Shown one piece after another: positions 9,161-42,500 of a stretch of 64,000 bases of DNA. Origin of the DNA: a virus (Duplodnaviria > Caudoviricetes); IMG/VR virus record IMGVR_UViG_3300025689_000001, positions 1-64,000 of that record. One strand, written 5' to 3'. Below the pieces are notes generated by a model. The model had not been told where the DNA came from, ran no database searches, and saw only the letters and a list, made by a program, of their open reading frames with translations. Positions within the stretch are counted from its first letter, which is position 1, and every line of letters begins with the position of its first letter. Made by a program: the position numbers and the translations under genes.

Positions 9161-12100
9161 TATTGGTAGAAAGAATAAGAATTTTACGACACAGTGGAAT
9201 AAGTTACAGAATGAGTATGGTACAGAACTTGCATACCTTAATGGTTTTGGTGATGACCAGCTTTCTCTTGGTGAGTTTATTGACAACTTTGTTGATGAGC
9301 CGGTTGTAGCAGATAGCTCTATTGACTCAAACAGTAACGTAAGAAGAAAGGATATTGTAACACTTCTTTCAGAAATGCCTAAGCCTCATAGAAAGGTTAT
9401 GGCTTTTTAGAAGATTTATTATGAAATGTAGAAAGCATATGGCTTTAAGGCTGCTAACGAATGGCTTCGCCGCGACTGGACGGGAGAAATCTATATACAC
9501 GACGGAGATACAGCAACCTTTAAGTCTTATTGTTTTGCGTATGATTTAAAGGATTTGGCTGAGAAGGGACTTTATTTCCTTGGCGATACCTTCAATGCTA
9601 AGCCACCAAAGCACCTTACAACTTTTGTAGACTTCATAAAAGAGTTTATTAACTTTGCAAGTAATAGAACTTCGGGTGAATTTGCTGCGCCCATATGTTT
9701 CTTTTCTGCTAATCAGCAGGGTCGCATTTGCGGCTAACGGGGGAGGCTAAGTGAATGAATAATTCATATGTTAGTCCCGTGGGAATCATTAGAAAAGACA
9801 TCTACATTATTAGAAATGATATTAACACTAAGGTATATATAGGACAATCCTTAGATTCTGAACAGAGATTCAAATCTCATTGTAAGGGAGACTACGATAA
9901 TTCTTTAATTGATAAGGCAATTCAAAAATATGGATAGGAGCATTTCTGGTTTGAGATTCTTGAATCTCAAATAGAAAACTATAATGAAAGAGAACAATAT
10001 TGGATAAAATATTATAATTCATTAAAACCCTTTGGATATAATATTTTAAAAGGAGGAGAAACTCCACCAATACATTATGGCGATAATCATCCAAATGTAA
10101 AAATCTCAGACACGGATGTAGTCAAATTAAAACGAGACTTGTTAAAAACAGATATTTCATTATCTCAATTGGCAGATAAATATAGTATTTCAAAAAAACA
10201 AGTGTTAAGAATAAATCAAGGTATTAGTAGAGCATCTCTTAATGAAACTTATCCAATTAGAAAAAATCCAAATATGAATGGTAAATTGACAGAAGAAGAT
10301 GTAGATAATATCATAGATTTACTTAAATACACATATCGTTTTAATGGAGATATAGCGAGAGAATATAATGTTGAAGTTCATACTATATCAAAAATCAATA
10401 ATGGTATTATTCATCATCGAAATAACATTCAATATCCAATTCGTAATTGGAAAAGTTCTGGAATAAATTTATTTACTTATGAACAAGTAACTGAAATTAT
10501 TGAAGCCTTGTTAAAAACTAAAGAAAGTATTCAGTCTTTAGCAAAAAAATATAATGTAGATAGACGTGCTATTGAAAACATTAATCGTGGCACATCCAAA
10601 AAATATTTTCGAGAAGGACTGTCCTATCCTTTACGAAAATTCTAATGAAGCCTGTATCGACTATCCACGCTAAGTGGAGTACTCCTGCTATTGATACGCA
10701 GGGGGACAGAGAAACACTGCGACAAAGGTCGTAGGAAAATCCAGTCAGTTCCTATGGAAACATAGGAGTTCCGACGGCAGTCGGATTACCTAACCTTATT
10801 CCCTATATGTATTACTTCTGGAAAGAGGACCAGAAGAAAGCCTACTTCGGCATTACTGAATGGGACGAGTATGCTTATCAAAACATTCAGAGATTTATCT
10901 ATGCCGTTAACCAACCATGCGTAAGGGATAGAATCTAATTAGAACTGTCCATTTATTACTTTTCCAGTAATCACTGGGGTCACTTAAATAGTGGCTAACG
11001 AGGGAGCCTGAAGCCCCTGTCGGGAGACATAGGTATGGTAATCTCGTGGGAATCATTTAATTGCTCTAATAAAATAAATTAAAGGAGGTGAATAGATGGA
11101 AAAATATATTTATATAATTACAAATAATATCAACAATAAAGTTTATATTGGTCAATCCAATGACCCTAAATATAGATTTAATCAACATTGCCGCCCTAAT
11201 AATGATAATAGTTTAATAGATTTAGCTATACAAAAATATGGTAAAGAACATTTTACTATGTCAATATTAGAAGGTCCAATAAAAAATTATAATGAACGAG
11301 AAAAATATTATATACTTAAATATAATTCTTTAAGACCAAATGGCTATAATATTCTTGAAGGAGGAAATGAACCGCCTCTTTTTAAAGGTATTGAACATCC
11401 TGAAGCAAAATTTAAAACTAATATAGAATTAGAAAAAATTGTTTCAGATTTAAGATTTACAAAAAATAGTATAAGAGATATTGCGAAAAAATTTAATGTA
11501 TCTCCCTCTTGCGTAAGTGATATTAATTTAGGAAATACTTATTATAATTCAAATATTGAATATCCACTAAGAAAAAATCCTAATCCAACTGGCAAACTTG
11601 CTCAAGAAGATATTGAAGAAATTATCTATGCATTAAAGTTTAGTTATTTTTCTTATGAAGATATTGGAAAAAGATATGGAGTAGAGGGAAGGGCAATTTC
11701 AAGAATAAATAGTGGAACTTACCATAAGCAAGATAATATTTCTTATCCAATTAGACAATATCGGGCTACAAAAAACGCTGGTCAATTAACTTATCATCAA
11801 GTTTCAGAAATTATAGAGCTAATCTCTACGACAAAAATAAGTCTAAGGCAAATTGCATTACAATATAATGTAGCTCCAAATATAATAATTGGTATTAAAA
11901 ATGGTTCAACAAAAATGTATAGGAGAGATAATCTTATCTATCCACTTAGAGCAAATAATTAAATGAAGCCTGTATCGACTATCCTCGCGAAGAGGAGTAC
12001 CTCCGCTATTGATACGCGGGGGGAAAGAGTAATATTACTTTTAATTAAGTAATAAAAAATAGTCAGCGCATAATGAAAATTATGATAACGTGGGTCAGCA

Positions 12101-15100
12101 GTCTGCTTTTACAAATACATCTGTATTTGACAGAGAGTATCTTATGGCACTTTTCGGCGGAGCACAGTTCCCTAACGGTGAAGACATGGTTGACCACATT
12201 GATGGTATTATGGACTTCCAGAAACTTTATATGAAAGCTATGAGCGATATTCGTTCAGAGAATATGTTTACTTTCCCTGTTTCTACAATTTCACTTATAA
12301 GAAAGAATGGAGAGTTCCTCGACCCTGAGTTTGCGGAGTGGGCTATTGGACATAATATTAAATGGAGTGACTCAAACCTCTTTATTGATGATAATGTTTC
12401 AAGTCTTTCTAACTGTTGCCGCCTTAAGAGTGATATTCGTGACCTTGGGTATGTAATAAATGCCCTATTATCCCTTTACCAGTAATCTCTGGGGTATACT
12501 TTAAAGTATGCTAACGGGGAAACCTGAAGCCCTGTCGTGAGACATAGGTATGGCAATCCCGTGGGAAGTCTTTTCATCTATAATTTCTCTCAGCTAGAGA
12601 GGTGATATAGTGAAGAAAAGCATTTATGTAATTAAAAATAAAATTAATAATAAAGTTTATGTAGGTCAAGCAATAGACCCACAACGTAGATTTATAGCTC
12701 ATTTATCAAGAGCTAAAACAAATGTTGATAACTCTCCTATTCATGATGCAATAGAAGCATTAGGTAAAGAAAACTTCTATTATGAAATTTTAGAAAAAGA
12801 TATTGAAGATTATAATGAAAAGGAGAAATATTGGATAAAAAAATTGAATTGTAAACTTCCTAATGGATATAATTTGACAGATGGTGGCGAAGAACCACCA
12901 ACGTTTTATGGAGAAAATCATCCAAGAAGCGTTATACTTGATGAAACAGTATATAATATTATTGATGATTTAAAATGGAGTAAATTAACACAAGTACAAA
13001 TTGCAGAAAAATATGATGTTAATACACAAATGATTACTTCAATTAATAATGGTATAACTCATAAAATGGATTATGTTGATTATCCAATTAGAAAAGGAAC
13101 ACCATATCATTTATTACCAGAAGAGGTTGATAATATACAATGGTTATTACTTAATAGGGAATTTACAATAAAGACTATTGCAGAATACTTTCATGTATCG
13201 GAAGGAACAATAAAACACATAAATGCTGGAAGAAATTATAAAAATTCTGCTCTATCTTATCCTTTAAAAACAGGTAGAGCAAAAGGTGAAAAGGAACCTG
13301 TATCGACTATCCTCGCCAAGAGGAGTACACTTACTATTGATACGTAAGTGGAAATGGGGATATGCTTACACAGGATATGTAAGTATAAGAGATAGTCAGT
13401 GCCCACAGAAATGTGGGATTACATGATTTTAATTCCATCGGTGGTACTGCTTTGAAGGTTGGTTCTGTTAAGGTTAATACAATTAATCTTGCAAGACTTG
13501 CACTTGATACAAACACAAAAGAAGAGTATCTTGAAGAGCTGAAGGCAAGAACACTTTGCGTTGTTCGTTCACTTCATGTTGTCCGCCATATCATTGAAAG
13601 AAACGTTGAGAAAGGATTGCTTCCTAATTTCTCATATGGTCTTATTGATTTTGAACACCTTTATAATACAATCGGTTTCATTGGTATCTATGAGACAATG
13701 AAGAAGTTCGGTTGCACATATCAGGACAAACTCGGCAACACCTATTACACTCAGGAAGCCGCAGACTTCGGCAAGAAGATTTTCGATACCATGAGAGAGG
13801 TTGCTGATAAGTTTCTTGAGGAAGGCGGCTATGATTATAAGATTAACACAGAGCAGATTCCTAAACATCACTGGGAATGCGTGGCATAACGTCAAATAAA
13901 CCACGAAAAATAAAAAGTTCCACTAATTGACTTGGAGTTCTTTATAAGTTAGCGTTTCTTATAAAGATAACAGGGCGCAAGCGTAATGGTAGCGTGAACG
14001 ACTAAATGTGGAACCTCCAAATTGACTGAAAATATTGGAGATGCGATAGTCTGAACTCACTTATATATTGAAGAGTGAGAGAAATGGTCAAGAGTAAAGA
14101 CTCTTTAAAGAAGAACCATTTCCGCCAAATATATAAAGGAGTTGAAATGAAATGGATATATTAAATAGTTCAGGCTTTAAAATTGGAGTCGCTAAAATTG
14201 ATGGGGATTTAATTATCATAAATAATAATAATAAACCACTTTTAATTATAGAAGACGATTTAGAACTAATTCAAAAAATCAAAAATAAAGATGAAAGTGG
14301 TTTTGAAATATTGTTTAATAAATATTATCTCTTGATAGGAGAAATCGCCGCCCTTTATAATATGACTTATTCTACTACAAGAAAACATATGATAAAAATG
14401 GGCATTGATACAAAATCTAAAGCAGGACGCAGAAATTCGTCTTATGGAAAAACTTTTTCAGATGAACGAAAAGCAAAAATTGGTGCCGCGTCAAAAGGCA
14501 GAAAAATTACTCCCTATGAAAGGACTCCAGAAATTAAAAATAAGATTTCTGAAAGTTTATTAAAATATTATTCAGAGCATGAAGTTAGCGAAGAAACAAG
14601 AATAAAATTATCTCAAGCGTGGAAAGATGGCAAGTATGAAAATGCCAATATGGGACGTGGATATAATGGATTCTTTTACTCTATTAAAAATAATAAAAAA
14701 TTCTTTTTCAGAAGTTTGTTAGAACTATGTTATTTGATACAAATAGAAAACAATAAAGATATTTCTTTTTATGATATTGAACCATTTCAAATTAAACTAC
14801 CTAATAATCATCATTATACTCCAGACGTATTTTTAAATGGAGAAATTTTAATTGAATTAAAACCTAAAAAGCATTTATTATATGAAGATGAAGAAAGATT
14901 TAATTTAGAGGTATCTTCCGCAGAAGAATATTGCAAAAAACATAATTTAACTTTTAAAGTTATTTATGATGAAGATTTAGGTTTTAGAAGTGATAAATTT
15001 AAAAGATGGTTATTAAATAATAAAGAAGATTTAAGTAAATATCAAATTACTTTTTCTTCTAAAGATATTTGGTCATAAAAGTAACAGATTGGGTGAAAAC

Positions 15101-15580
15101 GCCGCTGCTAAGTTAATGAAGAAGGACCAGTTCTTCTATCCTGATGCTGATATTTACGATTTGCCGCTTTACGGTAATCAGTTCATGCCACTTGGTATTA
15201 AGGCTACTTTACAGGAAAGAGTTCGTGTTCAAGCTATGTTTGACGGATTCTGCAATGGTGGCTCAATTCTTCATGCGAACATTGATGCTCCATTCAAGAA
15301 CTATGAAACTGCAAGACAGATGGTTGAATATATCGCAGACCAGGGCGTAACCTATTTCGCATTCAATACAAAGATTCAGGCTTGCGAAGACAACCACTCT
15401 TTCTATGGAACTACTTGTCCTATTTGCGGTAAGCCTATTGCAACAGAGTATACTCGTGTCGTTGGTTTCTTAACTCCTGTTAAGACTTGGACAAAGGCAA
15501 GAAAGGCAGAGTATAAGATGAGAAGATGGGAGAAGATTAAATATGACCCTACTAACACCACAAGAGAGGGAGAGGATTAA
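9153..15580 (+). CDS. nrdD: Class III anaerobic ribonucleotide reductase, 5 exons (9153-9677, 10777-10929, 12093-12450, 13426-13862, 15092-15580), 653 aa spliced, 2 in-frame TAG in exon 1
   Basis: Junctions restore NRTSG|AVGLPN, RD|GQQSAFTN, DLG(Y)FNSIGG, EQIP|GENAA; SNCCRL finger loop; C-terminal Zn site and YTRVVGFL glycyl-radical motif; exon total 1962 nt, in frame. Confidence 0.93.
9678..10776 (+). mobile_element. Group I intron nrdD-I1
   Basis: 5' exon ends in U, intron ends in G; IGS CTGC-GCCC pairs 3' exon GCAG and 5' exon GGGT; core GCTAACGGGG, CCCGTGGGA, CGACTAT, AGTC. Confidence 0.9.
9755..10645 (+). CDS. Intron-encoded GIY-YIG homing endonuclease with 3 HTH-like repeats; 1 TAG
   Basis: DIYII...VYIGQS; TAG 9935-9937 joins ORFs 9755-9937 and 10139-10645; three IN.G...YP(I/L)R repeats. 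Confidence 0.88.
10930..12092 (+). mobile_element. Group I intron nrdD-I2
   Basis: GGAT| pairs IGS GTCC, 3' exon GGT pairs ACT; ends ...ACGTG; same core motifs as I1. Confidence 0.9.
11096..11962 (+). CDS. Intron-encoded GIY-YIG homing endonuclease with 3 repeats
   Basis: YIYII...VYIGQS, RF.QH, E..YI, GYN; three YP(L/I)R repeats. Confidence 0.9.
   Translation: MEKYIYIITNNINNKVYIGQSNDPKYRFNQHCRPNNDNSLIDLAIQKYGKEHFTMSILEGPIKNYNEREKYYILKYNSLRPNGYNILEGGNEPPLFKGIEHPEAKFKTNIELEKIVSDLRFTKNSIRDIAKKFNVSPSCVSDINLGNTYYNSNIEYPLRKNPNPTGKLAQEDIEEIIYALKFSYFSYEDIGKRYGVEGRAISRINSGTYHKQDNISYPIRQYRATKNAGQLTYHQVSEIIELISTTKISLRQIALQYNVAPNIIIGIKNGSTKMYRRDNLIYPLRANN
12451..13425 (+). mobile_element. Group I intron nrdD-I3
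   Basis: Splits the Tyr codon T|AT; IGS AAAT-GCCC pairs both exons; P7 GACTA/TAGTC; ends in G. Confidence 0.9.
12610..13347 (+). CDS. Intron-encoded GIY-YIG homing endonuclease with 2 repeats; 3' end runs into P7
   Basis: SIYVI...VYVGQA; two IN.G...YP repeats; last codons overlap CCTGTATCGACTAT. Confidence 0.88.
   Translation: MKKSIYVIKNKINNKVYVGQAIDPQRRFIAHLSRAKTNVDNSPIHDAIEALGKENFYYEILEKDIEDYNEKEKYWIKKLNCKLPNGYNLTDGGEEPPTFYGENHPRSVILDETVYNIIDDLKWSKLTQVQIAEKYDVNTQMITSINNGITHKMDYVDYPIRKGTPYHLLPEEVDNIQWLLLNREFTIKTIAEYFHVSEGTIKHINAGRNYKNSALSYPLKTGRAKGEKEPVSTILAKRSTLTIDT
13863..15091 (+). mobile_element. Group I intron nrdD-I4 (different core type, HEG 3' of P7)
   Basis: ATTCCT| pairs IGS GGGAAT, 3' exon GGTGA pairs TCACT; GAACGACTAA...GATAGTCTG core; HEG looped out by CCAAATAT/ATATTTGG. 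Confidence 0.88.
14152..15078 (+). CDS. Intron-encoded endonuclease, NUMOD3-like repeats plus TnsA-like PD-(D/E)XK domain
   Basis: FSDERKAKIG, SEETRIKLS repeats; FRSLLE...YTPD...IELKP. Confidence 0.75.
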   Translation: MDILNSSGFKIGVAKIDGDLIIINNNNKPLLIIEDDLELIQKIKNKDESGFEILFNKYYLLIGEIAALYNMTYSTTRKHMIKMGIDTKSKAGRRNSSYGKTFSDERKAKIGAASKGRKITPYERTPEIKNKISESLLKYYSEHEVSEETRIKLSQAWKDGKYENANMGRGYNGFFYSIKNNKKFFFRSLLELCYLIQIENNKDISFYDIEPFQIKLPNNHHYTPDVFLNGEILIELKPKKHLLYEDEERFNLEVSSAEEYCKKHNLTFKVIYDEDLGFRSDKFKRWLLNNKEDLSKYQITFSSKDIWS

Positions 15581-15806
15581 TAAGCTATGTGAGGAGGCAG
15601 CAACTTAGCTGCCTTCTCCTTTAACTCCTCCAGAGAAAATTGAGATAAATGTAAAGTATGAAATATCGCCGCAAGACTTAGAGGTATTAAGAGATATATT
15701 CGGTCAGATATATGAAGATACTTTTGGGAGATATGACAATCCTAATATGTGGACTTTTGCGGAGTTTAAAAAGGAGAGTAATGATGGAAATAAAGAATCT
15801 AATTGA
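15543..15806 (+). CDS. Hypothetical 87-aa protein, one in-frame TAG
   Basis: ATG 15543 after GGAG; TAG 15606; TGA 15804-15806; fills the nrdD-nrdG gap. Confidence 0.5.
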
Positions 15807-16353
15807 TGAAGACTTTGTTCAATATAGAAAGCCATCAATGTTTATCGGTATGCCCCATTGTACTTTCAAATGTGATAAAGAGTGCGGCCGTAATGTTTGT
15901 CAGAATTCTGACCTTGCACTCGCGCCCACAATTGATATGAATTTAGTAGAAATAGCAACAAGGTTCTATGAAAATCCAATAACCAAGGCGGTTGTTTTTG
16001 GAGGACTCGAACCATTTGATGATTTCGATGATATGATTGAACTTATCAAGGTCTTTGAAGCTTTATACAAAACTTGTTTTGATATTAAAGAGATGCCTGA
16101 TATAGTTATCTATACAGGATACTATCCTCATGAGATTGAAAATTTGCTTCTAAGGCTTCAGAATGAAACAACCGAAGCAAAGATAATCGTGAAGTTCGGG
16201 CGTTTTATTCCTGATAGACCGAGCCGTTTTAGTACGAATCTTGGAGTGGAACTTGCAAGCGAAAATCAGTTTGCCGCTTGCTTGAGAAATGTTCACAATA
16301 TGGAGGCACTTAAAAAGGCTGGGTTTGAATTTAAGGAGCGAGGAAATATATGA
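15781..16353 (+). CDS. nrdG: Anaerobic RNR activating protein (radical SAM)
   Basis: CTFKCDKEC...CQN, VFGGLEP, IYTGY, VKFGRF, LASENQ; AAGGAG RBS before 15781/15784. Confidence 0.88.
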   Translation: MMEIKNLIDEDFVQYRKPSMFIGMPHCTFKCDKECGRNVCQNSDLALAPTIDMNLVEIATRFYENPITKAVVFGGLEPFDDFDDMIELIKVFEALYKTCFDIKEMPDIVIYTGYYPHEIENLLLRLQNETTEAKIIVKFGRFIPDRPSRFSTNLGVELASENQFAACLRNVHNMEALKKAGFEFKERGNI

Positions 16354-17240
16354 AGGATTTAATTATACTTGGAAATGGAATGGCAGGAATGACTGCCGCA
16401 TTATATGCAAAAAGAGCAAATCTTAATTTTGATATTATTGGAAAAGATAGCTATGACTTCGGACAGATTGGTAACGCAATTCTTGTTGAGAACTATCCCT
16501 GTTCAGAAAGTAAGAGCGGCTTTGATTTAGCAATGTCTCTCCATGACCAGCTTGAAGCCAATGGTGTTGAAATCAAGGAGCACGAAATAGAGGACATTTT
16601 TAAATTTGATGACTATTACCGTATCTATTGTGCAGACGGCGAATCATTTGAAACGAAAACTATTATCTATGCTTTGGGCGCAAATCATAGAGAATTAAAA
16701 ACTATTGACCAGAATGTCCCAGTACATTATTGTGCGCTTTGTGATGGAGCGTTATACAAAGATAAGCGTGTCGCAGTTATCGGCGGAGGAGATGTTGCTT
16801 TCACACAAGCAGAATATCTTTCAAAGATTTGTAAAGAAGTACGCATCTTAATGTGCGATAGTAATGTTACTGCTTCTCCTTCCACTTTTGAAAGAGTTTC
16901 AAAAATTCATAATGTTTACATAGATTATGATTGCCCTGTAACAAGAGTTACTAAAGATACGAATGGAGTTCTATGGATATGGTGTAAAGGAGTAAGAGGA
17001 CCAATATTTGCAGAAGGAATCTTTGTATCAATTGGAATGATTCCTAATACCTCTATTCTTCATTTTGTAAGTCTTACAGGGAATGGCTATATTCCTGCTG
17101 ATGAAACTGGTGTAACTGATTGCCCAGGTTTCTTCGCCGCCGGAGACGTTAGAACGAAAAAGGTTCGCCAAAGCATAACTGCCGCTTCTGACGGAGCGAA
17201 TGCGGTTCAGTCTGTAATAGACTATTTAAAGAGTCACTAA
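16350..17240 (+). CDS. trxB: Thioredoxin reductase
   Basis: GxGxAG FAD motif, YCALCDG redox CxxC, VIGGGD, GFFAAGDVR. Confidence 0.9.
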   Translation: MKDLIILGNGMAGMTAALYAKRANLNFDIIGKDSYDFGQIGNAILVENYPCSESKSGFDLAMSLHDQLEANGVEIKEHEIEDIFKFDDYYRIYCADGESFETKTIIYALGANHRELKTIDQNVPVHYCALCDGALYKDKRVAVIGGGDVAFTQAEYLSKICKEVRILMCDSNVTASPSTFERVSKIHNVYIDYDCPVTRVTKDTNGVLWIWCKGVRGPIFAEGIFVSIGMIPNTSILHFVSLTGNGYIPADETGVTDCPGFFAAGDVRTKKVRQSITAASDGANAVQSVIDYLKSH

Positions 17241-17270
17241 TTGTATGGACCATATCGGAGATGATACTTT

Positions 17271-17480
17271 ATGAATAAATGTGATTTTTGTATTTGTAAA
17301 ACTTGTGCCATTGCTTATTATAATGGCGGAGCGCCAGGATGCGGAGATTGCTGGCTTTGTGAAGGAACACCAAATTAGCATGGAGTAACGGCTTGTCATG
17401 AATATTACAACCCAACTCCACGCGAGAGAAAACCAAGTCCATACGATGAAATAAAAGGTGAGAAAGAAAGTCAAGAGTAA
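17271..17480 (+). CDS. Small Cys-rich protein (69 aa, 8 Cys), one in-frame TAG
   Basis: MNKCDFCICKTC...GCGDCWLCEGTPN[TAG]HGVTACHEYY; GGAG RBS; TAA 17478-17480. Confidence 0.65.
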
Positions 17481-17483
17481 TTC

Positions 17484-17512
17484 TTGACTTTTCTTTTATT
17501 TTATGGTAAAAT
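17484..17512 (+). promoter_or_regulatory. sigmaA-type promoter whose -35 is the 3' arm of an inverted repeat
   Basis: AAAGTCAAGAG-TAAT-TCTTGACTTT; TTGACT-17-(TG)TAAAAT. Confidence 0.65.
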
Positions 17513-17544
17513 AAAGTATAGAAAAATGAAAAGGAGTGGATATA

Positions 17545-18126
17545 ATGGAAAAGTCTTGGTGTGTTTATAAACATGCTCTTCCAGATGGGCGATGTTATAT
17601 TGGATAGACTTGTGATATAGCAACCCGATGGAAACCAAGCGCCTACAAAAATTGTGTAAAGTTTTATTCTGCCATTTAGAAATATGGGTGGGAAAATTTT
17701 AATCACGAAATATTAGTAGATAATCTTACACTTAAAGAGGCTAATCATTTAGAAGAAGAATATATTAAAAAATATAATTCAATTGAAAAAGGCTTTAATT
17801 TAAATAGCGGTGGAGAAAATAAATTACATTCGCAAGAAACTAAAAATAAAATGAGCCAAACAAGAAAAGGAATATCTCATTCATAGGAACATAATGAAGC
17901 TATTTCTAATGCTCTTATGGGAAAGAAGAAAACTCCTGAACATATACGCAATAATCAATTAGCTCAACACCGAAAGCCAGTTGAGTGTATTGAAACAGGA
18001 GAAAAATATGAAAGTTTATCTGATGCCGAGCGGAAAACAGGAATTTTAGGAGAGACAATAAGTAGATGCTGTAGAGGTAAACAGAAAACTGCAAGCGGCT
18101 TTCATTGGAGGTTTATAAATGAGTAA
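17545..18126 (+). CDS. Free-standing GIY-YIG homing endonuclease with NUMOD3/NUMOD1 domains; 2 TAG
   Basis: CVYKH...CYIG[TAG]T, AI[TAG]KYGW, GFN, HSQETKNKMS, KPVECIETG...KTASGFHWRF. Confidence 0.88.
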
Positions 18127-19966
18127 TTATAATATTGATAATATTCAACATTTAAATACCCGTGAAGCTATGAGAGCTAAAATACCCATGTATCTTGGTT
18201 CTGATACCACAGACGGTATTTATCAAGCCTTAAAAGAAATTATAAATAATTCTACTGATGAGGCTCTTGTTGGTTACGGCAAGGAAGTTGACATACTTCT
18301 TAACGAAGAAACCAATGAAGTTACTGTTAGAGATTATGGTCGTGGAGTTCCTTTTGGAATAAAAGATGGTCGTAATATTCTTGTTGCAATTTATACTGAA
18401 AGTCACACTGGTGGAAAATTTGACAAAGGCGCATATAAAAATAGCTCAGGACTTAATGGTATTGGTGGAACAGCAGTTTGTATGAGCTCTTCAAAATTTA
18501 TTGTCAAATCTGAAAGAGATAATACTGCTGCAATAGCTTATTTTGAAGAAGGCATACTTAAAGATTATAAAGAAATACCTTATGAAGGTAATACTACTGG
18601 TACTACTGTAACTTTTATACCAGATAAAAAGGTCTTTATTAATGATACTGAAGGATTCTCTTATGAAAGAATTTGTGATGAAATTAAGAACATCGCATAT
18701 CTTAACAAGGGAATCAAGTTTATTGTTGAAACTACTCAGGGAAGGAAAAAGGAATTCTATTCTGAAAACGGTATTGCTGATTTCATTAAGGATAAGGTAA
18801 AGAATCCTCTTATGAATGCTCCCATCATCGCATCTGCAAAAGACGAAACCGATGAGCTGGAAATTGCGTTTATGTGGACTGCTGACCCAACACAGGAATA
18901 CGTTTTCGTAAATGGTCTTTATTGTCCATTTGGCGGCTCTCCTGTAACTGGTGCAAAGACAAAGATTACTACAAAGATTAAGGCTTTAAGTGGTAAGTCT
19001 TTTGACCCTGAACTTATCCGTAAAGGACTTGTATTTGCAATTAACTGTAAGGTAGCAAATCCTTCTTTCGCAAACCAGACAAAGAGCAAGATTAACAACC
19101 CTAATCTTCGTACTCTTGCATCAGAAGCATTTGATAAAGGACTGTCAGAGTTCGCAAATCTTCCTGAGTGTGCCGCATTAATTGAGTCTCTTGAAAAGTT
19201 CCAGAAAGCTGAAAAAGCTGCTGACGCAATCAGAGAGAAGATTCTTAATGCCGCAAAAGAAGTAAGTGAAATGAGAACTAAGAAGGGCATGATTCTTAGT
19301 AAGGTAAGTGATGCCAAAGTTCTTGGAGAAAATTCTCGTCTCCTTATCTGTGAGGGTAAATCTGCAAGCGGTTCTGCAAAGAAAGGTAGAGATAAAGACC
19401 TTCATGGTATCTTTGAAGCTCGTGGTAAGATTATTAACGGATTAAGCTGTTCTGAAGATAAGTTCCTTGATAACGATGAAATTAAACAGCTCCAGGTTGC
19501 AGTTGGTTTTGACTATGGTAAGCCATTCAATCCGAAGAAAGCAAGATACGGTTATATCGACTTCTTCGTTGACCCTGATGTCGATGGTCTTCATATCTTC
19601 TTACTTGGTCTTGTTGCTATTTGGAAGATTTGTCCAGATTTCGTAAGACAGGGAAGAGTAGGTTGGTTCCATGCTCCTCTTTTCATCGTGGAGAATAAGG
19701 GTAAACAGACATATTTCTACACTGACGAAGATTACAACGAGAGAGGAAGAAAACTCCCCGGTAATGTAAGACGTGTAAAGGGTCTTGGTTTGCTTGAAAA
19801 GAGAGAACTCCGTGAAGCAATTTTCGATTGCCCTGAAGCACATGAAGTTTTTGAATATACTCCCGAAGCTATGGAAGCTCTTGAAGCACTTATGGGTGCA
19901 GACGTTGGACCTAAGAAAGAGTTCATTTTCGAGCATATTGACTTCAGCAAGTATGGTGAAATGTAA
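18119..19966 (+). CDS. gyrB: Type IIA topoisomerase subunit B (GyrB/ParE)
   Basis: EIINNSTDE, DYGRGVP, HTGGKF, SSGLNGIG, ICEGKSA, RGKIIN, DPDVDG, KGLG. Confidence 0.9.
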   Translation: MSNYNIDNIQHLNTREAMRAKIPMYLGSDTTDGIYQALKEIINNSTDEALVGYGKEVDILLNEETNEVTVRDYGRGVPFGIKDGRNILVAIYTESHTGGKFDKGAYKNSSGLNGIGGTAVCMSSSKFIVKSERDNTAAIAYFEEGILKDYKEIPYEGNTTGTTVTFIPDKKVFINDTEGFSYERICDEIKNIAYLNKGIKFIVETTQGRKKEFYSENGIADFIKDKVKNPLMNAPIIASAKDETDELEIAFMWTADPTQEYVFVNGLYCPFGGSPVTGAKTKITTKIKALSGKSFDPELIRKGLVFAINCKVANPSFANQTKSKINNPNLRTLASEAFDKGLSEFANLPECAALIESLEKFQKAEKAADAIREKILNAAKEVSEMRTKKGMILSKVSDAKVLGENSRLLICEGKSASGSAKKGRDKDLHGIFEARGKIINGLSCSEDKFLDNDEIKQLQVAVGFDYGKPFNPKKARYGYIDFFVDPDVDGLHIFLLGLVAIWKICPDFVRQGRVGWFHAPLFIVENKGKQTYFYTDEDYNERGRKLPGNVRRVKGLGLLEKRELREAIFDCPEAHEVFEYTPEAMEALEALMGADVGPKKEFIFEHIDFSKYGEM

Positions 19967-19969
19967 TAT

Positions 19970-19998: not shown

Positions 19999-20019
19999 TT
20001 TAATATAAGGAGTGATAAG

Positions 20020-32217: not shown

Positions 32218-32236
32218 AAAATGGGAGAACTTTGTA

Positions 32237-32944
32237 ATGTCTAAAAGAATAGATTTAACTAATTAGACATTTGGTGATTGGTATGTTATTGATTTTAATA
32301 AAGAACGAAGTAATAATCATGGCTCTTATTGGAATTGTAAATGTCTTAAATGTGGACTAATAAAAGCAGTACGTTCTACCAATTTGCGCTCGGGTGCCTC
32401 AACAAGTTGTGGCTGTAAATCTTCTTAGATAAGAATTGGAGACAGGTTTGGATTTTTAGAAGTCATTTCCTTAGATGAAGAACGAAGTGGTTAGGGAAAA
32501 GGCAGATATTGGTCTTGTTATTGCCATAATTGTGGCAGCACGCATTCAATTGATGCTTCAAATCTAAATAGAGGAAATGCATTAAGTTGCGGCTGTATTA
32601 AAATGTCTAAAGGAGAATATAAAATTGAATAGTGGCTTAAAAGTCATAATATTAAATTTCACAAACAATATTATTTTGAAGACTTAAAACCTAATAATTA
32701 TCCTTTAAAATTTGACTTTGCTATTTTTAATCCGAATATAATACTAATAGAATATTAGGGCAAGTAGCATTATGAGCCAATAGATTTTTATGGTGGAATA
32801 GAAGGGTTATAGAAATAGCAATTAAGAGATAATCAAAAAAGGGAATATTGTTTATCACACAATATTCCTCTATATGAAATTTCTTATAAAGATAATATTA
32901 GTAAATTGGAGGAATGTATTTATGGAAATAATGAAACAAACTGA
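32237..32944 (+). CDS. Free-standing endonuclease: two Cys-rich (WxCxC..CG...SCGC) repeats plus DUF2726-like PD-(D/E)XK domain; 8 in-frame TAG
   Basis: IDLTN[TAG]TFG, SKGEYKIE[TAG]WL, LKFDFAI, IEY[TAG]GK[TAG]HY, RD..KREYC; TGA 32942-32944; absent from the standard-code ORF track. Confidence 0.85.
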
Positions 32945-33119: not shown

Positions 33120-33307
33120 AAGGACAAGGACTGATGGATGAAGTCTGCCGCGGCTTAGCTGGTGAGATAAGTTTTGAAGAATCCGTTCGCAGACAAACAA
33201 ACATCTTGGAATATGAGATAATGCAAGCCATTAAAGAAAAATTGGAGGGATATATCAATGAAATTCCACATGGACGAAAAGGAGAGCTACAAAAAGAAAA
33301 TCGATAA
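33113..33307 (+). CDS. Hypothetical small protein
   Basis: ORF overlapping the previous stop. Confidence 0.45.
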   Translation: MVKGQGLMDEVCRGLAGEISFEESVRRQTNILEYEIMQAIKEKLEGYINEIPHGRKGELQKENR

Positions 33308-33404
33308 GATGAAGGAAGATATGGCTCGCCGCAATAAGGAAATTCAGAAAGAGTGCGAAAAGAAGAAAAAACAGTAAGGTTGAAAAAGTCAGGGCTTAAA
33401 AGTC

Positions 33405-33433
33405 TTGACTTTTTCTTTATTTTATGATATAAT
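33405..33433 (+). promoter_or_regulatory. sigmaA-type promoter upstream of dnaE
   Basis: TTGACT-17-(TG)ATATAAT; -35 is the 3' arm of inverted repeat AAAAAGTCAGG...CTTGACTTTTT. Confidence 0.75.
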
Positions 33434-33511
33434 ATATATAGAAAGATAAAAGAAATATTAAAAATGAATATCCCTGCATAGTTGCTCGGCGATATTGATT
33501 GGAGGTATATA

Positions 33512-36500
33512 ATGGATATTAAGACACTCAAAAGATTTGACGGTCATTCCCATAGCATGTTTTCAAACTTCCGTTTGATTGACTCAATAAACAGACCAAA
33601 GGATATGATTCTTAAGGCATATGAACTTGGTATGTCAGGTATTGCACTAACAGACCATGAAACAGTTGCTGGTCATGTCGAATGGTTGAAGTGTGAAAAG
33701 GAACTGAAGAAAACTGGCAAAATTCCAGAGGACTTCAAGTGCGCTTGTGGCAATGAGATTTATCTTGTAGATGACCGTACAAATATTGAAAGATATTGGC
33801 ACTACATTCTCATCGCTAAGAACACAGAAGGACACAGGGCGTTGAGAGAATTAAGTTCAACGGCTTGGTATAATGGATTTAATTCTCGTGGTATGATGCG
33901 TGTTCCTACTGAAAAGGCAGAACTTGAAGCAATCGTTAGAAAGTATCCGAACACTTTGATTGCAACAACTGCGTGTCTTGGCGGTGAGTTTCCTCATTTT
34001 GTGGCGGAGTTAGTTAAGGCAGAACAAGCTCATGATGAAAATGAGATTCGCAAGTGGAAGATGGAAATTCATAAGTTCATGACTTGGAATATTGATTTGT
34101 TTGGTGATGATTTCTATATTGAAATCGCTGCCGCAAATGTGAAGGACCAGATTCGCTTTAATGAAAGAGTTAAAAGCATCGCTACCTACTACAAGAGAAA
34201 AGTTGTAATCGGTTCAGATGCACATTATCTTACTGCAAAGGAGCGTCCTGTTCATAAGGCTTATCTTAACTCAAAAGATGGTGAACGTGAGGTTGATGGT
34301 TTCTATACTTTCGCTCATATGATGGATAATGAAGAAGCATATGGAAATCTTAGCATGACTTTCTCTGAGGAAGAGTTCGCAGAGTTTTGTGCAAACTCAA
34401 TGGAAATTTATGATAAGATTGGTACTTATGATATTTTCAGAAAGCCAATCATTCCGAGAGTTGAAGTTGTACCAAAGGATTGTCCAGTAACTCCTGATTG
34501 GATTTGGAAGGATGATTGTCCGGTACTTACACAACTTATTCAGAGTGATAATGTACAGGAAAAGTATTGGGTAACAGAATGTTTACTCAGTATGATTGAT
34601 AAAGGACTTTTTGGAAAAGAGAATTATATGATTGTTCTTGAAACAGAAGCAAGAGTAATTAAGGTTGTTGGAGAGAAACTCGGTAACTGTCTGTACGAGT
34701 ATTTTAATACTTTCCAACATATGATTAACTTATTCTGGGATTGCGGTTCAATCGTAGGTCCTGGACGTGGTTCAGCAGTTTGTTTCTTAAGTAACTATCT
34801 TCTTGGAATAACTCAGCTTGACCCATTGAAGTGGGGACTTAAGTATTGGAGATTAACTTAATTTAAAGGTCTCCCTATATAGCGATATATAGAAAAATAA
34901 CTCCGTGAACGTTTAGCAAACGGTGTCGACTTTACTATTGGAACCGTAGGAAATGACGGTTAAAAAGTCGGCTAACAGGGAAGAGTCTTTATTCGTTAAA
35001 GAGAATCCTGTGCCAAGCTACTTAAATATTGGAGAGCCAATATTTAAGATGAAGGTGAAACGACTATCGAAAAGCATATTTAAATATGAACTGAGTAGAG
35101 TAGGATGGAGATGCTACCATCTGAAGCGCGGAGGCTCTCATAATATATCATATTAAAGAGGTGATAATTATGGGATATATTTATAAAATAGAAAATAATA
35201 TTAACCATAAAGTTTATATTGGACAAACAATTAAATTTTATGAAGAACGTTTTAAATAGCATAAGGTAAATTATACGAAAGAATATTTTTCATAGTTGGC
35301 ATTATATAAGGCATTTAATAAATATGGAATTGAAAATTTTACTTTCTTACCCATTGAAGAAGTTGCAAATGAACTTTTAGATGAGAGAGAAAAATATTGG
35401 ATTTCATTTTATGATAGCTATTATAATGGTTATAATTCTACTTTAGGAGGAAGATTAGTAGAATTATATGAGTGGGATGTTGATAAAATTATTGAAAGAT
35501 ATATGGTTTTAAAATCAGCTCGCAAGGTTGCAGAAGAAATCGGATGCGACCATTCAACTATTGATAGAATTTTAAATGAAAACAAAATTAAACGCTTTAC
35601 TTTAAAAGACCAAAGAGTTTATAACAATGTTGTTATTGAAAATGAAAAAGAAAGATATTTTTTCAAAGATAATCGAGAATGTGCAATTTTTCTTATTGAA
35701 AAAGGTTATAGTAAATCAAAAAATATTGATTATATATCTCATGTAATAAGAAAATCTATTAAACAAAATAAATATTATTTAGGTTTTAGAATATATTGTG
35801 AGAGCAAGATATAGTCTACACCCCTGGTGACAGGGGATTAATGTGTTTTAAATGAAGAGCGTGTAGAACTGCCTAAACTTTAATATTGGGCAGTATAAAA
35901 TGGGTGAACGCATTCAGCGGTGTCTTCTTAATTGAAGGCTAACGGTAGAAGTTGAATAAGGCAATGCGCGAAGCAGCTTCGTAAGAGAGACTACGGTCCT
36001 GAAAAGGATAGCAGTTGATACCGTGCTAAGTTAAACTTTATCTATTTTTCTGGAAAAGTTGAAGATTTATCTCATTCTAATACTTTATAACTGAGGTGAT
36101 AGAATGGAAAGAGAAATCAAAAACTTTCCCGGGTATACAATAACTGATGATGGAAAAGTTATCAGTTACAAATTTAAAAAGCCAAGAGTAATGAAAACTT
36201 GGTATCAAAAATCTGGATATGAAAATATTAAACTATGTAAAGATAATGTAACTTATCATTTCTTAATTCATAGATTGGTTGCAGAAGCTTTTATTCCAAA
36301 TCCAAATAATTTACCTGAAGTGAATCATAAAGATAAAAGTAGACAAAATAATCGAGTAGAGAACTTGGAGTGGAGTAATAGAGCAGATAATCTTTATGAT
36401 AGTTATAGTACAATGACTGCTACAAGAAATTTTAGAGAATGTATCTTAATAAGAGAGAAAGACAATGCTGAAATTAAATCTTTTCAATCTGTTAAAGCGG

Positions 36501-39500
36501 CAGCAGAATATGCAAATGAAGAATTTGGTTGTAGTATTAGTGGAATGAGAAAAAATTATAAATCCAGAGGATATAGATTAGAGTTTAAAAAGTGTAACGA
36601 CTAAATTGAGATTATAAAATCTCTAAAAGGATGGAGATGAATACCATTCCGTAGTGCCCATTATGGACAAAAGTCCTAAAGAGATAGTCTATTCCCCTAA
36701 TAAATATCGGGAAACCGAGGGTGTAAAAAGGATATTGATATTGACCTTACTCCTTCAAAGAGAGCTGCTGTTTTCGCCGCCCTTCGTAAGGAGCGTGGAG
36801 AGCTCAACGTTATTCAGGTTTGTACTTATGGTACAGAAGGTACTCGTTCTGCAATTGCCGCCGCTTGTCGTGGTTATCGCTCAGAGTGGTATCCCGATGG
36901 TATTGATACAGATACAGCACAGTATCTTAGCTTGTTGATTCCTCAGGAGCGTGGACTTCTCTGGTCAATTCATGATGCCGTTTATGGTAATGAGGAAAAG
37001 GGCAGGGCTCCTATCGCAGCTTTGGTAAATGAGCTTGATAAGTATCCCGGTCTTCTTGAGATAATCGAGTCTATTGATGGGTCGAAGAAAAAACTGGCCC
37101 TTAAACACCTTTTCCATTAATCAATGGGGTTAAGATTTAATCTTAGCTAACGGGGAAGCCTGAAGCTCCTGTCGTGAGACATAGGTATGGTAATCCCGTG
37201 GGAAAAACTTTTCTTCACGATTTTATTGAAGAGTATTTATCATTTTATTACCTTATTAATGAGAGGTGATAATAATGAATTATATATATGGTTATCAAAA
37301 TAAAATAACAGGTAAATGGTATGTAGGACAAACTTCTAAGTCTATTGAAGAAAGACATAGATTACATTTATCTTCTGCTTATCATGAAACTTGTAATGAT
37401 TATAATTGCTTATTCCATAAAAAAATTAGAGAATATGGTATTGAAAATTTTGAATTAGTTCTATTAGAACAGGTTATTGACAAATCTTTATTAGACGAAA
37501 GAGAGCAATATTGGATAAAAGAAAAGAAGTCTTTTGTTAGAGACAACGGATATAATTTAACAACTGGCGGCCAACAAAGAAAAAATAATGAAGACTATCA
37601 AGATATCCGTCAAACGTTTTCCAGTGAAGAAATTCAGGAAGTATATCGTCTAATAAGAGATGAAAACATCAAACTTACAGATATAGCAAATAAATATGAT
37701 GTTTCTTTAAGTTTAATTTGTATGATTAATTCTGGTAAAAAATATCATAATGATAATTTAATCTACCCTTTAAGAAAACAAAACATTAAAATTTCTGAAG
37801 AAATTGTCGATGAAATAATTTCTTTATTAAAAGAAAATAAAGGTAATGCAGAAATTGCTAAGATTTATGGAATAAATGAAGATGTGGTTTATAGGATTAA
37901 TAAAGGTTTAGCACATAAAAGAGATATTGATTATCCAATTAGACAAAACAGTAGTAAAAAGCAAGAGCTTATTGATAGAGCAAATACAATTAAATCTTTA
38001 TTAAAAGAAAATAAACTTAATAATAGACAAATTGCTGATTTAGTAGGATGCGATCCGTCTGTTGTATCTAATATAAATTATGGAAAAAATTATTATGATA
38101 ATACTCTTGAATATCCGTTAAGAAAAAGTTAAACCTGTATCGACTATCTCTGGTGAGACAGAGAGTAGGGACACTATTGATACGTGTCGCCACGGAGGCA
38201 ACAATGTGGCTGAGAACCGAAATGGGGTTATTAGTATTTTATACTAATTAAAAGATAGTCAGGGCTTGATTGAAAAATCAAGATAACCGTAGTTAATAAG
38301 AGAGGACAGCACGCATCTGGTGTTATTCTTTATAACGATTCTCCATTTGAAACTGGCGCAATTATGAGAAGTCCGAACGGAGATTTGACAACACAATATT
38401 CTCTTCACGAAGCAGAGGAACTTGGAGACGTTAAGTATGACTTCCTTGTAACTGAAATTTGTGATAAGCTCACAATTGCAATCAGTTTGCTTCAGAAGGA
38501 TAATTTAATTGACCCAACCCTGAACTTAAGAGAGGTTTATAATAAGTATCTTCATCCTGACGTTCTTGACCTTAAGGACCAGAAGATTTGGGATGCACTT
38601 AGTAACGGTACGGTTCTTGATGTATTCCAGTTCAGTACGGGCGTTGGTCTTGCAACTGCAAAGCAGGTTAAGCCGCAGAATCCTACTGATATGCTTAACG
38701 CAAATGCGTCGACATTGGCGCTTACACACTTTACCTTTAATCAAAGGGGTTAAGATTTAATCTTAGCTAACGGGGAAGCCTGAAGCCCCTGCCGGGAGGC
38801 ATAGGTATGGTAATCCCGTGGGAAATATTGATTCACCTCATAGGAGGTGATAGAATGCATTTAATATATTGTTATACAAATTTAATCAATAATAAAAAGT
38901 ATATTGGACAAACAAATAACTTAAAAAGAAGAATAAAATAGCATAAAGATGATTCTTTTACTAATTATAGTGAAGCAAGATATAATCAATTAATTCATCG
39001 AGCTATTAGAAAGTATGGTTTAGATAATTTTGAAATAAGCGTCTTAGAAGATAATATCTCTACGGAATTAATTGATGAAAAAGAGAAATATTATATAAAT
39101 AAATATAATACAATAGCTCCAAATGGATACAATTTAACAGAGGGTGGAATGGCAAACAAAACTGCTCCAGTTCCCTCTAAATATGAAGATGTTTTTATGA
39201 TGATAGTAGAAGAATTAAAAGGAGCGAAAAGCCTTAAAGAAATTGCAGGACAATTTAATATGTCTTATTCTTATTTAAGTGATATAAATAACGGAACAAG
39301 ATTATTTCATGAAAATATAGTTTATCCAATAAGAAAAAGTTCAAATTCTCCAAGTAAAGAAGATTATTAGATTATTATTGATATGATAGAAAATACAAAT
39401 TTATCTTGTGCTAAAATAGCTCAATAGTTAAATTTAAATGCTGCAACGGTTAGAAAAGTAAATAATGGATAGATTAAAAAAGTGGTTAATTTATTTCCTG

Positions 39501-42500
39501 AAAAGACTTTTCCGCTAAGAAAGGTGAATCAATAAACCTGTAGAGACTATCTCTGGTTAGACAGAGAGTAGGTTTACTATTGATACGTAAATCAAAATGG
39601 TGTGCCGTAAGGTAAAAGATAGTCCAGACCACAAACAGTTGCCCAGCTGGTAGAGAAATCTATAGTGGTATGTAATGAGACTTATGGGTGAGCCTGGAGA
39701 GGAAAGACCTCTCAATAGATATTGCCGTCTTAAGGAAGATATGAGAGCATGGTACATGGAGGCAAAAGATGCTGGTCTTACAGAAGAGCAGATTAAAACT
39801 CTTGAACCATATTATCTTCCTAACTGTGGAGTTCCTTCTTCACAGGAAGACATGATGGAAATCTGTATGGACGAAAAGATTGCAAACTTTAGTCTTTCTG
39901 AAGCAAATGCGACAAGAAAGATAGTTGCAAAGAAGAAAATGGACCAGATTCCTGCTCTTCACGAGAAGTTTGTAAATGCTTGTCCGACAAAGAGATTTGG
40001 AGAATATGTATGGAAGACAACAATGGGTCCTCAGATGGGATAAGTAACGATTGTCCTATCAAATACCCTTTCTTCTTATCAGAAGGGTTCTAATTTATTA
40101 GAGCTAACGGTTGAACCCAACACTTATAGATAGAACAAAAAGCTATCTGTAAGAAGGGCAATCCCGTGGGAATCATCTTATGGATAGTAATAAATGGAGT
40201 TGATATAATGTATTACATTTATTGCTATAAAAATAAAATTAATGGACATAAATATGTTGGACAAACAAACAACATAAAAAGAAGAATTAATGAACATAAA
40301 AGCGCCGCCTTCAATGAAAATAGCGGTGATTATGATTTATTATTTCATAAAAAATTAAGACAATATGGAATAGATAATTTTGAAATAGTTATTTTAGAAG
40401 AAATTGACTCAAATGACCAGACTGTAGTTGATGAAAGAGAACAGTTTTGGATTAAATTTGAAAATAGTTTTGTTAGAAATGGTAAAGGATATAATCTAAC
40501 AGAAGGCGGTCAGTTCTCTAAGACAGTTAATAAAAAAATATCTTTGGAAGATGCAAAAGAAATTCAGCAAATGATATTAAAAGGTAAATCATATGAAGAT
40601 ATTCAAAATAAATATAATATCTGTCCAAGTTATATTACAATGATAAATCAAGGGAATTATTTCTATGACAAAGATTTAAGTTACCCTCTTCATAAATATT
40701 ATAAATCAGATGATGATTATAATGAATTAATTGATTTACTTAAATATAGTGATTTATCATTAAAAGCTATTTCAGAAAAATTAGGTTTTGGATATTCAAC
40801 AGTCAAAAAGATTAATGAAGGTAGACTTAGAAAAGGCTTATCAGAAGAATATCCAATAAGAAAAAAGACCGTGTATGCAATAAAAGCAGATAGGGTTAAA
40901 GATTTATTATTAAACTCTACTTTAACTATTCCAGAAATAATGGTTGAGACTAAAGTAAGTCAAGAAACTGTTAGACGTATTAATATTGGTGAGTCACATC
41001 ATGACTCAAATTTAAACTATCCATTAAGATGAAGCCTGTATCGACTATCGCGGGTTAAGCCGCGAGTAGGGTGACTATCGATACGTCACTCGAAACGGGT
41101 ATTGGCGCTCCTAATAAGGAGCGAGTTAAGATATAGTCAGAGCCTATAGGAATATAGGATTACTCGATTCATTTGCAAAGCCTCATGCTCTTGCTTACTC
41201 ATTCGTTGGTATTCAGACTCTTTATCTTGCAACAACATATTCCGACATTTATTGGAATTGTGCTTGTTTGATTACAAATGCCGGCGGTGCGGATTTACTT
41301 GACACAGAAGATGTGGACAAGGAACTGGAAGAAATGGCAGAGCAGGATATTGAGGAAGTCGACGAAGACGAACTCATTGAAGCAATTAGTAAAAAGTATA
41401 AGAACAAGAGCGTTAACTATGGTAAGATTAGTGTTGCTCTTGGTAAGTCTAAAAAGGCAGGCATTAATGTTTTGCCGCCAGACATCAATAAATCAGACCT
41501 CATCTTTAAGCCAGATGCAGAGCGTAATGCAATCATTTATGGTTTGAAGGGTATCGACAGAATTGGTACAAGCCTTGTTTATGAAATCATGGAAAATCGT
41601 CCTTATACTTCTCTTGAAGATTTTACTAATAAGGTAAAAGTTAATAAAACTCAAATGGTTTCCTTAATTAAGGCAGGTGCATTTGACAATATTTATGGTG
41701 ACAGAGAAAAGACAATGGACTCTTATCTTGAACTCATTGCAGATAAGAAAAAGCGTATCACTTTGCAGAATATGACAATGTTGTATAATAAAGGTCTTAT
41801 TCCAGAAGAGCTTTCGTTTGAAGCAAAGGTTTATAACTTTACTAAGTATATTAGAAAGTTCAAACAGGGAGATTATTATTATCTCAATCATATTGCAATG
41901 AGATTCTTTATGGAGAATTATGACACAGATGTGCTTGTAGATATGGTAATTGACGGTGAAGATAATCACGCTTTAATTAAGCAGTCAACATGGGATAATA
42001 CCTATGATAAGGCAATGAATCCAGTAAGAGCATGGATGAAAGCAAATCAGGAAGAAATTCTTAGCACATTGAACAGAAGTCTTTTCGAAGATGTTCGTAA
42101 CAAGTATGCTCTTGGTTCGATTGATAAATGGGATATGGACGCCCTTGGTACATATTGCCACAATCATGAACTTGCAAATCTCAATAAGAGAGCATATGGA
42201 ATTGTAGATTTCGAGAGTCTTGACCCTGAGCCAGTAATTGCGTCTGAGTTCACAACAAAGGACGGCGGCGTAATTAGAATGTATGAAATTTCAAGAATCT
42301 GCGGAACTGTTATTGATAAGGATAAGAATAAGAGTACAGTAGTTCTCTTAACTCCTACAATGCAGGTTGTAAACGTAAAGGTTTGGAAAAATCAATACGC
42401 AAAGTGGGATAGACAAATTAGTAGAAAGAATCCTGATGGTACTAAGACAGTTATTGAGAAGAGCTTCTTCGCAAGAGGTAATAAACTGATTATAACTGGT

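Follow-up and report, generated by a model that had tools for sequence, protein, structure and literature searches.

Introduction

GIY-YIG homing endonucleases have been studied almost entirely through I-TevI and I-BmoI, in which the DNA-binding arm combines a zinc finger with a single helix and one helix-turn-helix (HTH). In the standard account of phage homing endonucleases, small DNA-binding modules make up an extended arm to which the nuclease is tethered, and GIY-YIG enzymes are classified by "different patterns of NUMODs" (PMC1564403, PMC3943268). A modular arm tethered to a nuclease is therefore already textbook knowledge, and the general idea is ordinary in kind. The subject here is a set of six homing endonuclease genes (HEG 1 to HEG 6) inserted in nrdD (anaerobic ribonucleotide reductase) and dnaE (Pol III alpha type) of an uncultivated phage, in a 64,000-nucleotide stretch, called the window below, that is the first 64 kb of the 122,745-bp IMG/VR virus record IMGVR_UViG_3300025689_000001. 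With a probability of about 0.8, the six encode I-TevI-type GIY-YIG homing endonucleases carried by introns of the two host genes, in which the nuclease is tethered to a row of two to three HTH units that reads the target. What the analysis shows directly are the domains and repeats, the predicted fold, insertions at exact sites that are filled in some relatives and empty in others, and a conservation of the third helix that is linked to the site.

Genes and catalytic domain

A sequence-only reading of the window had described six GIY-YIG open reading frames (ORFs) starting at 9755, 11096, 12610, 37275, 38855 and 40208, each with one GIY-YIG domain followed by two or three copies of a repeated module. 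All six are present, on the + strand and with that architecture, and the ORFs at 9755 and 38855 need TAG as a sense codon. In nrdD, HEG 1 (9755..10645) encodes 296 amino acids, with one TAG taken as Q, HEG 2 (11096..11962) encodes 288 and HEG 3 (12610..13347) 245. In dnaE, HEG 4 (37275..38132) encodes 285 amino acids, HEG 5 (38855..39535) 226, with four TAGs taken as Q, and HEG 6 (40208..41032) 274. Three modules follow the nuclease in HEG 1, 2, 4 and 6 and two in HEG 3 and HEG 5, giving 16 in total.

The catalytic domain is intact in all six enzymes. The Pfam model PF01541 (GIY-YIG) matches each above its cut-off (E 2e-7 to 3e-13), and R27, H31, E69 and N85 are invariant across 82 aligned relatives. 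The NCBIfam model TIGR01453, "group I intron endonuclease", gives the six 57.2-86.8 bits and a seventh GIY-YIG gene of the window 59.5, against a curated cut-off of 56.05. Foldseek aligns the nuclease domain with the I-TevI catalytic domain (1mk0/1ln0; E 2e-4 to 7e-4, target TM-score 0.68-0.76, 32-35% identity). PHROGs family 7168, "homing endonuclease", matches HEG 2 (E 8e-36) and HEG 4 (E 1e-35) over profile positions 1-274 of 284 and also matches HEG 3 (1e-29) and HEG 6 (7e-32); the module region is matched by PHROGs family 59 (HNH endonuclease). Homologues of HEG 2 fall into at least 1,397 clusters, named, where they have any name, "group I intron endonuclease" or "GIY-YIG nuclease family protein".

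The repeated module

The motif [YF]P[LI][RHK] occurs 3, 3, 2, 3, 2 and 3 times in HEG 1 to HEG 6, at a spacing of 56-65 amino acids, and marks the end of each module. The modules lie at 10100-10264, 10283-10447 and 10475-10639 in HEG 1; at 11411-11575, 11594-11758 and 11789-11953 in HEG 2; at 12931-13095 and 13108-13272 in HEG 3; at 37614-37778, 37782-37946 and 37962-38126 in HEG 4; at 39173-39337 and 39359-39523 in HEG 5; and at 40532-40696, 40700-40864 and 40868-41029 in HEG 6. Over 55 aligned columns their mean pairwise identity is 30%; G41 and P52 never vary, and conservation is at least 90% at I38, N39 and Y51. Repetition is not due to chance, because modules held out of a leave-one-protein-out profile score 29-63 bits, whereas none of 200 shuffles exceeds 9 bits. 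No copy beyond these 16 was found in the window in all six frames or in the complete 122,745-bp genome. The scaffold conserved across the wider family comprises L14, I24, A25, Y28, I35, I38, N39, G41, Y51, P52, I/L53 and R54.

The whole protein, modelled with AlphaFold2 (AF2) from the 82 aligned relatives, folds at a mean predicted local distance difference test (pLDDT) of 91.4 into an I-TevI-like nuclease, a linker and three module copies. A single module modelled by itself (pLDDT 93.7) has the same fold as within the whole protein: helices of 13, 7 and 9 residues and then a non-helical tail. The module is thus predicted to be a plain three-helix HTH with a structured tail of about 15 amino acids that closes with Y-P-(I/L)-R. 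Some 15-25 amino acids link the nuclease to the first unit; this linker is poorly conserved and modelled at low confidence (pLDDT 63-77), and the predicted template modelling score of 0.57 would agree with units that move freely relative to one another. The earlier proposal that the repeats are HTH units is borne out by these models, with three helices per module at pLDDT 91-94, and the helix residues that it singled out (KKQVLR, VHTISK, RRAIEN and others) fall at module positions 32-37.

The fold resembles that of HTH domains that read DNA sequence. Structure comparison of one module by VIA yields a plateau of tied HTH folds at Z 5.0-5.6, including GcrA, the HTH of Sin and Tn3 resolvases, the bipartite domain of Tc3 transposase, Myb repeats and IstA, and Foldseek with one module gives no match at E ≤ 0.001. 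The DNA-binding chain of I-TevI is absent from the Foldseek and VIA lists, an absence that carries no weight either way. The module profile compared with PDB sequences at E ≤ 10 finds generic HTH and designed repeat proteins, and no homing endonuclease or I-TevI chain among them; hhalign of the profile with I-TevI returns a probability of 0.3%. Pfam reports many weak, generic HTH matches in the six HEGs, mostly below the cut-offs, and the whole-protein scores that pass do so barely (HTH_11 27.0/25, Sigma70_r4 24.3/24.1, HTH_7 24.3/23.8). A LysM match in the HEGs is spurious.

The sequence-only reading did not recognise the repeat as a named NUMOD, and this judgement held: at E ≤ 1 the six HEGs match no NUMOD model of Pfam, NUMOD1 (PF07453) and NUMOD3 (PF07460) included, and neither of those two is found in the best 100 module-bearing proteins at E ≤ 1e-6. 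The models of the I-TevI arm, PF22635 (zinc finger), PF07460 (NUMOD3) and PF20987 (I-TevI DNA-binding HTH), are likewise without a match in the six at E ≤ 1, though the identical library detects all three in T4 I-TevI. NUMOD1 is faint even on I-TevI (13.8 bits, cut-off 22.8), and a distant kinship of the module with NUMOD1 is therefore possible.

A phage that reads TAG as glutamine

This phage evidently reads TAG as an amino acid, glutamine, because three lines of evidence agree. Two giant ORFs on the minus strand, 46464-52880 and 57511-63954, contain 14 and 31 in-frame TAGs respectively; two tRNA genes with the anticodon CTA lie at genome positions 121331-121484, beyond the window; and, of 71 informative in-frame stops in the nrdD and dnaE of relatives, 53 align to Q. 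Translation under table 11 breaks the ORF at 9755 once and that at 38855 four times, and both are whole only with TAG as an amino acid. The recoded intron endonuclease genes are HEG 1, HEG 5 and the seventh GIY-YIG gene (three TAGs); HEG 2, 3, 4 and 6 are free of recoding. In-frame stops have been proposed, in a preprint, to hold back endonuclease production until late in infection (10.1101/2021.08.26.457843).

Just upstream of dnaE, at 32237-32944, lies a 235-amino-acid ORF with eight in-frame TAGs, Cys-rich repeats and no Pfam match. A near-identity search of GenBank phages with positions 9000-14000 returned no match, and the phage has no near relative there. In public sequencing runs, a 130-kb pig-gut contig carries the entire nrdD region (9100-15600) with all four insertions at about 94% identity, and activated-sludge runs contain the same region at 100%.

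Insertion sites and mobility

Exons were defined against intron-less relatives, among 80 related nrdD loci and 23 related dnaE loci. The nrdD gene (9144..15580, + strand) has five exons, ending at ~9684 and then at 10777-10929, 12093-12452, ~13428-13862 and 15092-15580; HEG 1 lies in insertion 1 (~9685-10776), HEG 2 in insertion 2 (10930-12092) and HEG 3 in insertion 3 (~12453-13427). The dnaE gene (33464..42635, + strand) has matched exons at 33515-34855, 36731-37081, 38289-38708, 39672-40040 and 41169-42632; HEG 4, HEG 5 and HEG 6 lie in the insertions at 37082-38288, 38709-39671 and 40041-41168. All four nrdD insertions and the three dnaE insertions with module-bearing enzymes are precise with respect to the intron-less relatives, and those in nrdD remove no coding sequence. 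The six enzymes therefore occupy six distinct sites, three in each gene, as had been supposed.

Each of these sites varies among relatives. The nrdD gene is a single ORF in 55 of the 80 loci and has at least one insertion in 26; dnaE has no insertion in 12 of the 23. Of the 80 loci, 13 have an insertion after nrdD residue 234, with a three-module HEG in 12 of them and no long ORF in one (L079); most others are empty there. Sites 186, 352 and 499 of nrdD show presence/absence polymorphism likewise, and sites 577, 717 and 841 of dnaE are occupied, empty or without an ORF. Some relatives have, at the HEG 4 and HEG 5 sites, introns without an ORF that match the intron ends of the window at 94-99% identity, and identical insertion sites recur sporadically in distant relatives. 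On this comparison of collinear host genes, in which identical sites are filled in some loci and empty in others, the insertions behave as mobile, homing elements. The number of units is constant at each site (nrdD 4, 3, 4, 3, 2; dnaE 3, 2, 3, 3).

Repeated colonisation of one phage gene is illustrated by the nrdD of one close relative (L003), with six insertions, at residues 120, 186, 234, 352, 499 and 556, and by hot spots only a few codons apart. Module-type GIY-YIG genes occupy the first four of these sites, and the same scan detects neither modules nor a GIY-YIG motif in the ORFs at 499 and 556. The hot spots lie at nrdD residues ~228 and 234 (window 10929/12093) and at dnaE residues 841, 843/844 and ~850 (window 40040/41169), where different intron and endonuclease lineages sit within the conserved motifs NQPCVRD|G in nrdD and GPQMG|YSF|AKPHALA|YSFVG in dnaE. 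The cores of two dnaE introns, 37082-38288 and 38709-39671, share 91% identity across 111 nt of the 5' end and 89% across 56 nt close to the 3' end; by this similarity the two cores are paralogous, and intron and endonuclease therefore multiplied as a unit within the gene.

The insertions are self-splicing introns, probably of group I, in the reading preferred here. The letters at the approximate junctions fit the pattern U...G, a 5' exon ending in U and an intron ending in G. Metatranscriptome contigs about 95% alike exactly join 10929|12093, 12452|13428 and 13862|15092, as either spliced RNA or intron-less relatives; the junctions may come from the latter and are therefore not counted toward splicing, and regions without cover in the RNA runs carry no weight.

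Site-linked conservation of helix 3

If the third helix of each unit reads the target, its exposed residues should hold at a constant site and drift between sites. Orthologues from relatives are available at five of nine sites and give 30 diverged same-site pairs. Within such pairs, exposed helix-3 residues are 49% identical (277/567), the tail 40% (289/728), other surface 32% (376/1186) and the core 75%. Between sites, the same classes fall to 15%, 15%, 16% and 52%. Helix 3 exceeds other surface in all six of six phylogenetically separate pairs, which were picked by eye. Because helix 3 is held constant where the target is constant and is random-like between sites, its behaviour fits that of a site-specific recognition helix, with an effect of moderate size. 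The sequence-only reading had noted a constant scaffold with variable residues in the predicted recognition helix. Positions 32, 33, 36, 37 and 40 are among the most variable across the family.

Proposed mode of action

The enzyme would consist of an N-terminal nuclease with one active site, a short flexible linker and a beads-on-a-string arm of two or three units of about 55 amino acids. Helix 3 of each unit would enter the major groove of the intron-less allele, and successive units would read successive stretches of a long site, very roughly 20-35 bp in all. The conserved tail would set the spacing of the units and perhaps contact the minor groove. The tethered nuclease would then cut nearby, and repair of the cut allele would copy in the intron together with its gene. 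An enzyme would come to recognise a new target mainly because its reading helices diverge while the array is conserved, and because whole units are gained or lost; free reshuffling would not be the route. The DNA contacts, the length of the footprint, the position of the cut and splicing itself are parts of this scheme that we infer.

Several results weigh against it, concerning both the class of the introns and the strength of the helix-3 signal. A group I intron is not detected by Rfam at the gathering score anywhere in the window, and the nrdD and dnaE regions give none even at E ≤ 1. RF00028 matches only one of three ORF-less alleles of relatives (L090; 30.8 bits, E 1.3e-4), at a score below the gathering score of 50 and with the 5' end of the match overlapping exon sequence; the ORF-less alleles at L081 8572-8925 and L090 2133-2476 have no Rfam match at E ≤ 1. 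The conservation of helix 3 is moderate, comes from few independent lineages and is lacking in some nrdD-352 pairs (0.29 vs 0.31-0.33). In the broad group of HEG 2 homologues, taken together irrespective of insertion site, helix 3 is not clearly more constrained than the rest of the surface (within-group to family entropy ratios of 0.55-0.70 vs 0.52-0.91 for other surface). Across the whole family, helix-3 positions are just slightly more variable than other surface, at 3.2-3.9 vs 2.8-3.5 bits.

Breadth of the family

Searched against 1.84 billion representative proteins, the module profile matches 8,553 protein clusters at E ≤ 1e-3, of which 1,767 also pass E ≤ 1e-10. Each of the top 150 has 3-12 matched stretches, and the median unit period is 61 amino acids. 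GIY-YIG is found at E ≤ 1e-6 in 57 of the best 100 proteins scanned; one has an RNase_T domain, and no NUMOD is seen in any of them. A motif check of 149 proteins found the GIY...YIG pattern in 100, with a further 14 being mostly N-terminally truncated GIY-YIG proteins and 35 having almost nothing ahead of the first unit; recoded genes that were cut into pieces may account for some of these 35, since HEG 1 would look the same if translated under table 11. Arrays of 2 to 12 units in the family clearly point, at the level of sequence, to gain and loss of units.

One case comes from a cultured phage, Vibrio phage PWH3a-P1, in which nrdD is annotated as a joined coding sequence and the insertion encodes a three-unit enzyme. 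Its nrdD is too distant for tblastn with the nrdD reference, and the insertion is placed near the CRL...GG loop by eye only. No domain model for the module exists in Pfam or NCBIfam, and the literature searched holds no description of tandem arrays of one HTH unit behind GIY-YIG; an earlier naming is possible, perhaps as the SMART "intron-encoded nuclease repeat".

An arm made of one repeated HTH unit is thus very common in phage metagenomes, in thousands of clusters. Each intron-borne copy reveals its own target in the flanking exons, and the family is therefore a large natural set of array/site pairs, of use for learning how strings of HTH units read long sites and for building monomeric nucleases. 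A more ambitious idea is that the unit with its YP(I/L)R tail is a concatenable reading block, in which each unit reads about one turn of DNA largely independently, 2-12 units address sites of about 20 to more than 100 bp, and the code can be learned from metagenomic pairs of enzyme and target. This idea is a long shot; if true, nucleases built on HTH units, compact and monomeric, could stand beside those based on zinc fingers or TALE repeats as an alternative.

Alternative explanations

The sequence-only reading had gone further and proposed that new specificity arises by shuffling of repeats, as in a TALE- or zinc-finger-like modular reader. In that form each unit would read a fixed sub-site alone, through cipher residues, and units would be shuffled between enzymes. 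Part of the evidence would suit it: members of the family have anywhere from 2 to 12 copies, the scaffold is constant where helix 3 varies, and helix 3 is conserved site by site. The descent of the modules points elsewhere. A tree was built from 68 distinct modules of enzymes at nine sites. Grouped by site and position, these modules form 27 groups, which need 27 changes on the tree against a minimum of 26, and arrays are therefore inherited as whole blocks. The tree has 55 columns, and its deep nodes are poorly supported. The best-resolved pair of paralogues, the enzymes at nrdD-186 and nrdD-234 (represented in the window by HEG 1 and HEG 2), have different targets and the same module order, unit 2 grouping with unit 2 at a Shimodaira-Hasegawa-like approximate likelihood-ratio (SH-aLRT) support of 93 and unit 3 with unit 3 at 81. 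This suggests that retargeting between the two sites went with divergence inside a fixed order.

Two weak hints of changed order remain, a best alignment of HEG 2 with HEG 4 in reversed order (306 vs 275) and a grouping of dnaE852 unit 2 with dnaE841 unit 1 (SH-aLRT 86). A best-permutation test of module order in 143 three-module proteins says nothing at low identity, where it is biased by its bins, which are set by collinear identity. Two units of the same protein resemble each other no more than units paired at random do (12-17% at variable positions), and no pair of residues is conspicuously hypervariable, since variability is about equal at many surface positions. No fixed residue-to-base rule can be derived from the nine sites. 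Shuffling thus finds no backing in modules that cluster by site and position, the data point neither to such a rule nor to modules that act independently, and a programmable reader is distinctly unlikely here.

Less probable again is a reading in which the nuclease and linker choose the site and the row of HTH units gives general DNA affinity or does something else, for example represses the enzyme's own gene or helps the intron RNA to fold. I-TevI also represses its own gene, the Pfam similarity of the arm is weak and generic, and several C-terminal units at different sites share basic helices of the form T-I/V-K/R-K/R-I-N. A general role is hard to reconcile with exposed helix-3 residues that are conserved well above other surface at the same site and not between sites, with a number of units that is fixed at each site, and with a linker so short, so poorly conserved and so low in model confidence. 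We regard it as very improbable. That the genes are decaying relics, pseudogenes whose repeats are mere history, is scarcely credible: two of the six are interrupted under the standard code, L079 and L057 lack a long ORF at occupied sites, L081 and L090 have ORF-less introns and some RNA-run contigs have internal deletions, but every interruption is a TAG, sense in this phage, catalytic residues and scaffold are intact in all six, and orthologues only about 50% identical retain full length and unit number. The tethered nuclease with a site-reading row of HTH units is the reading that we retain.

Neighbouring insertions

Endonucleases of other kinds are inserted beside the six. The fourth nrdD insertion (13863-15091) carries a different enzyme, a 308-amino-acid ORF at 14152-15078 with a NUMOD3 motif and a TnsA-like endonuclease N-terminal domain, and its site is also occupied in the relatives L003 and L020. 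The first dnaE gap (34856-36730; 1,875 nt) has two endonuclease genes inside, the seventh GIY-YIG gene (35161-35841), which has no module, and an HNH gene with NUMOD4 (36104-36604). Relatives have just one of the two, at residue ~450 or ~460-462, and the gap fits two adjacent introns.

Comparison with known systems

The closest described enzymes are I-TevI, of the td intron of phage T4, and I-BmoI. The six HEGs resemble them in being intron-borne genes within genes of nucleotide metabolism or replication and in having a tethered arm of several parts that includes an HTH (PMC1564403, PMC3943268, PMC3664794). The arms differ in composition: those of the HEGs lack the zinc finger, the NUMOD3 helix and the I-TevI-type DNA-binding domain, and consist of two to three copies of a single HTH unit, up to 12 in relatives. 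The module also fits the NUMOD concept of small DNA-binding modules placed in varying patterns behind GIY-YIG or HNH nucleases, as tabulated in one source (PMC1564403, Table 1). In contrast to NUMOD1 and NUMOD3, it is longer (about 55 amino acids) and has its own YP(I/L)R tail.

Rows of three-helix HTH units joined by extended linkers are also known from the bipartite domain of Tc3 transposase, Myb R2R3, and paired and double homeodomains. In VIA, 1u78/1tc3 score Z 5.5 and Myb repeats 5.2-5.3, and Foldseek with the whole model lists 1u78, DUX4, POU and Pax8. Unlike the HEG arms, these arrays are domains of transposases or transcription factors, and the fold matches are weak and tied, with no detectable sequence relationship. 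Zinc-finger arrays and TALE repeats share with the HEG arms a repeated scaffold, variable DNA-facing residues and a varying copy number, whereas the HEG arrays are inherited as blocks and are built of units of about 55-61 amino acids, each of which would span about one helical turn. The six endonucleases thus keep to the known plan of I-TevI, in which a modular DNA-binding arm tethers the nuclease, and their form of the arm is a variant that is widespread and has no name.

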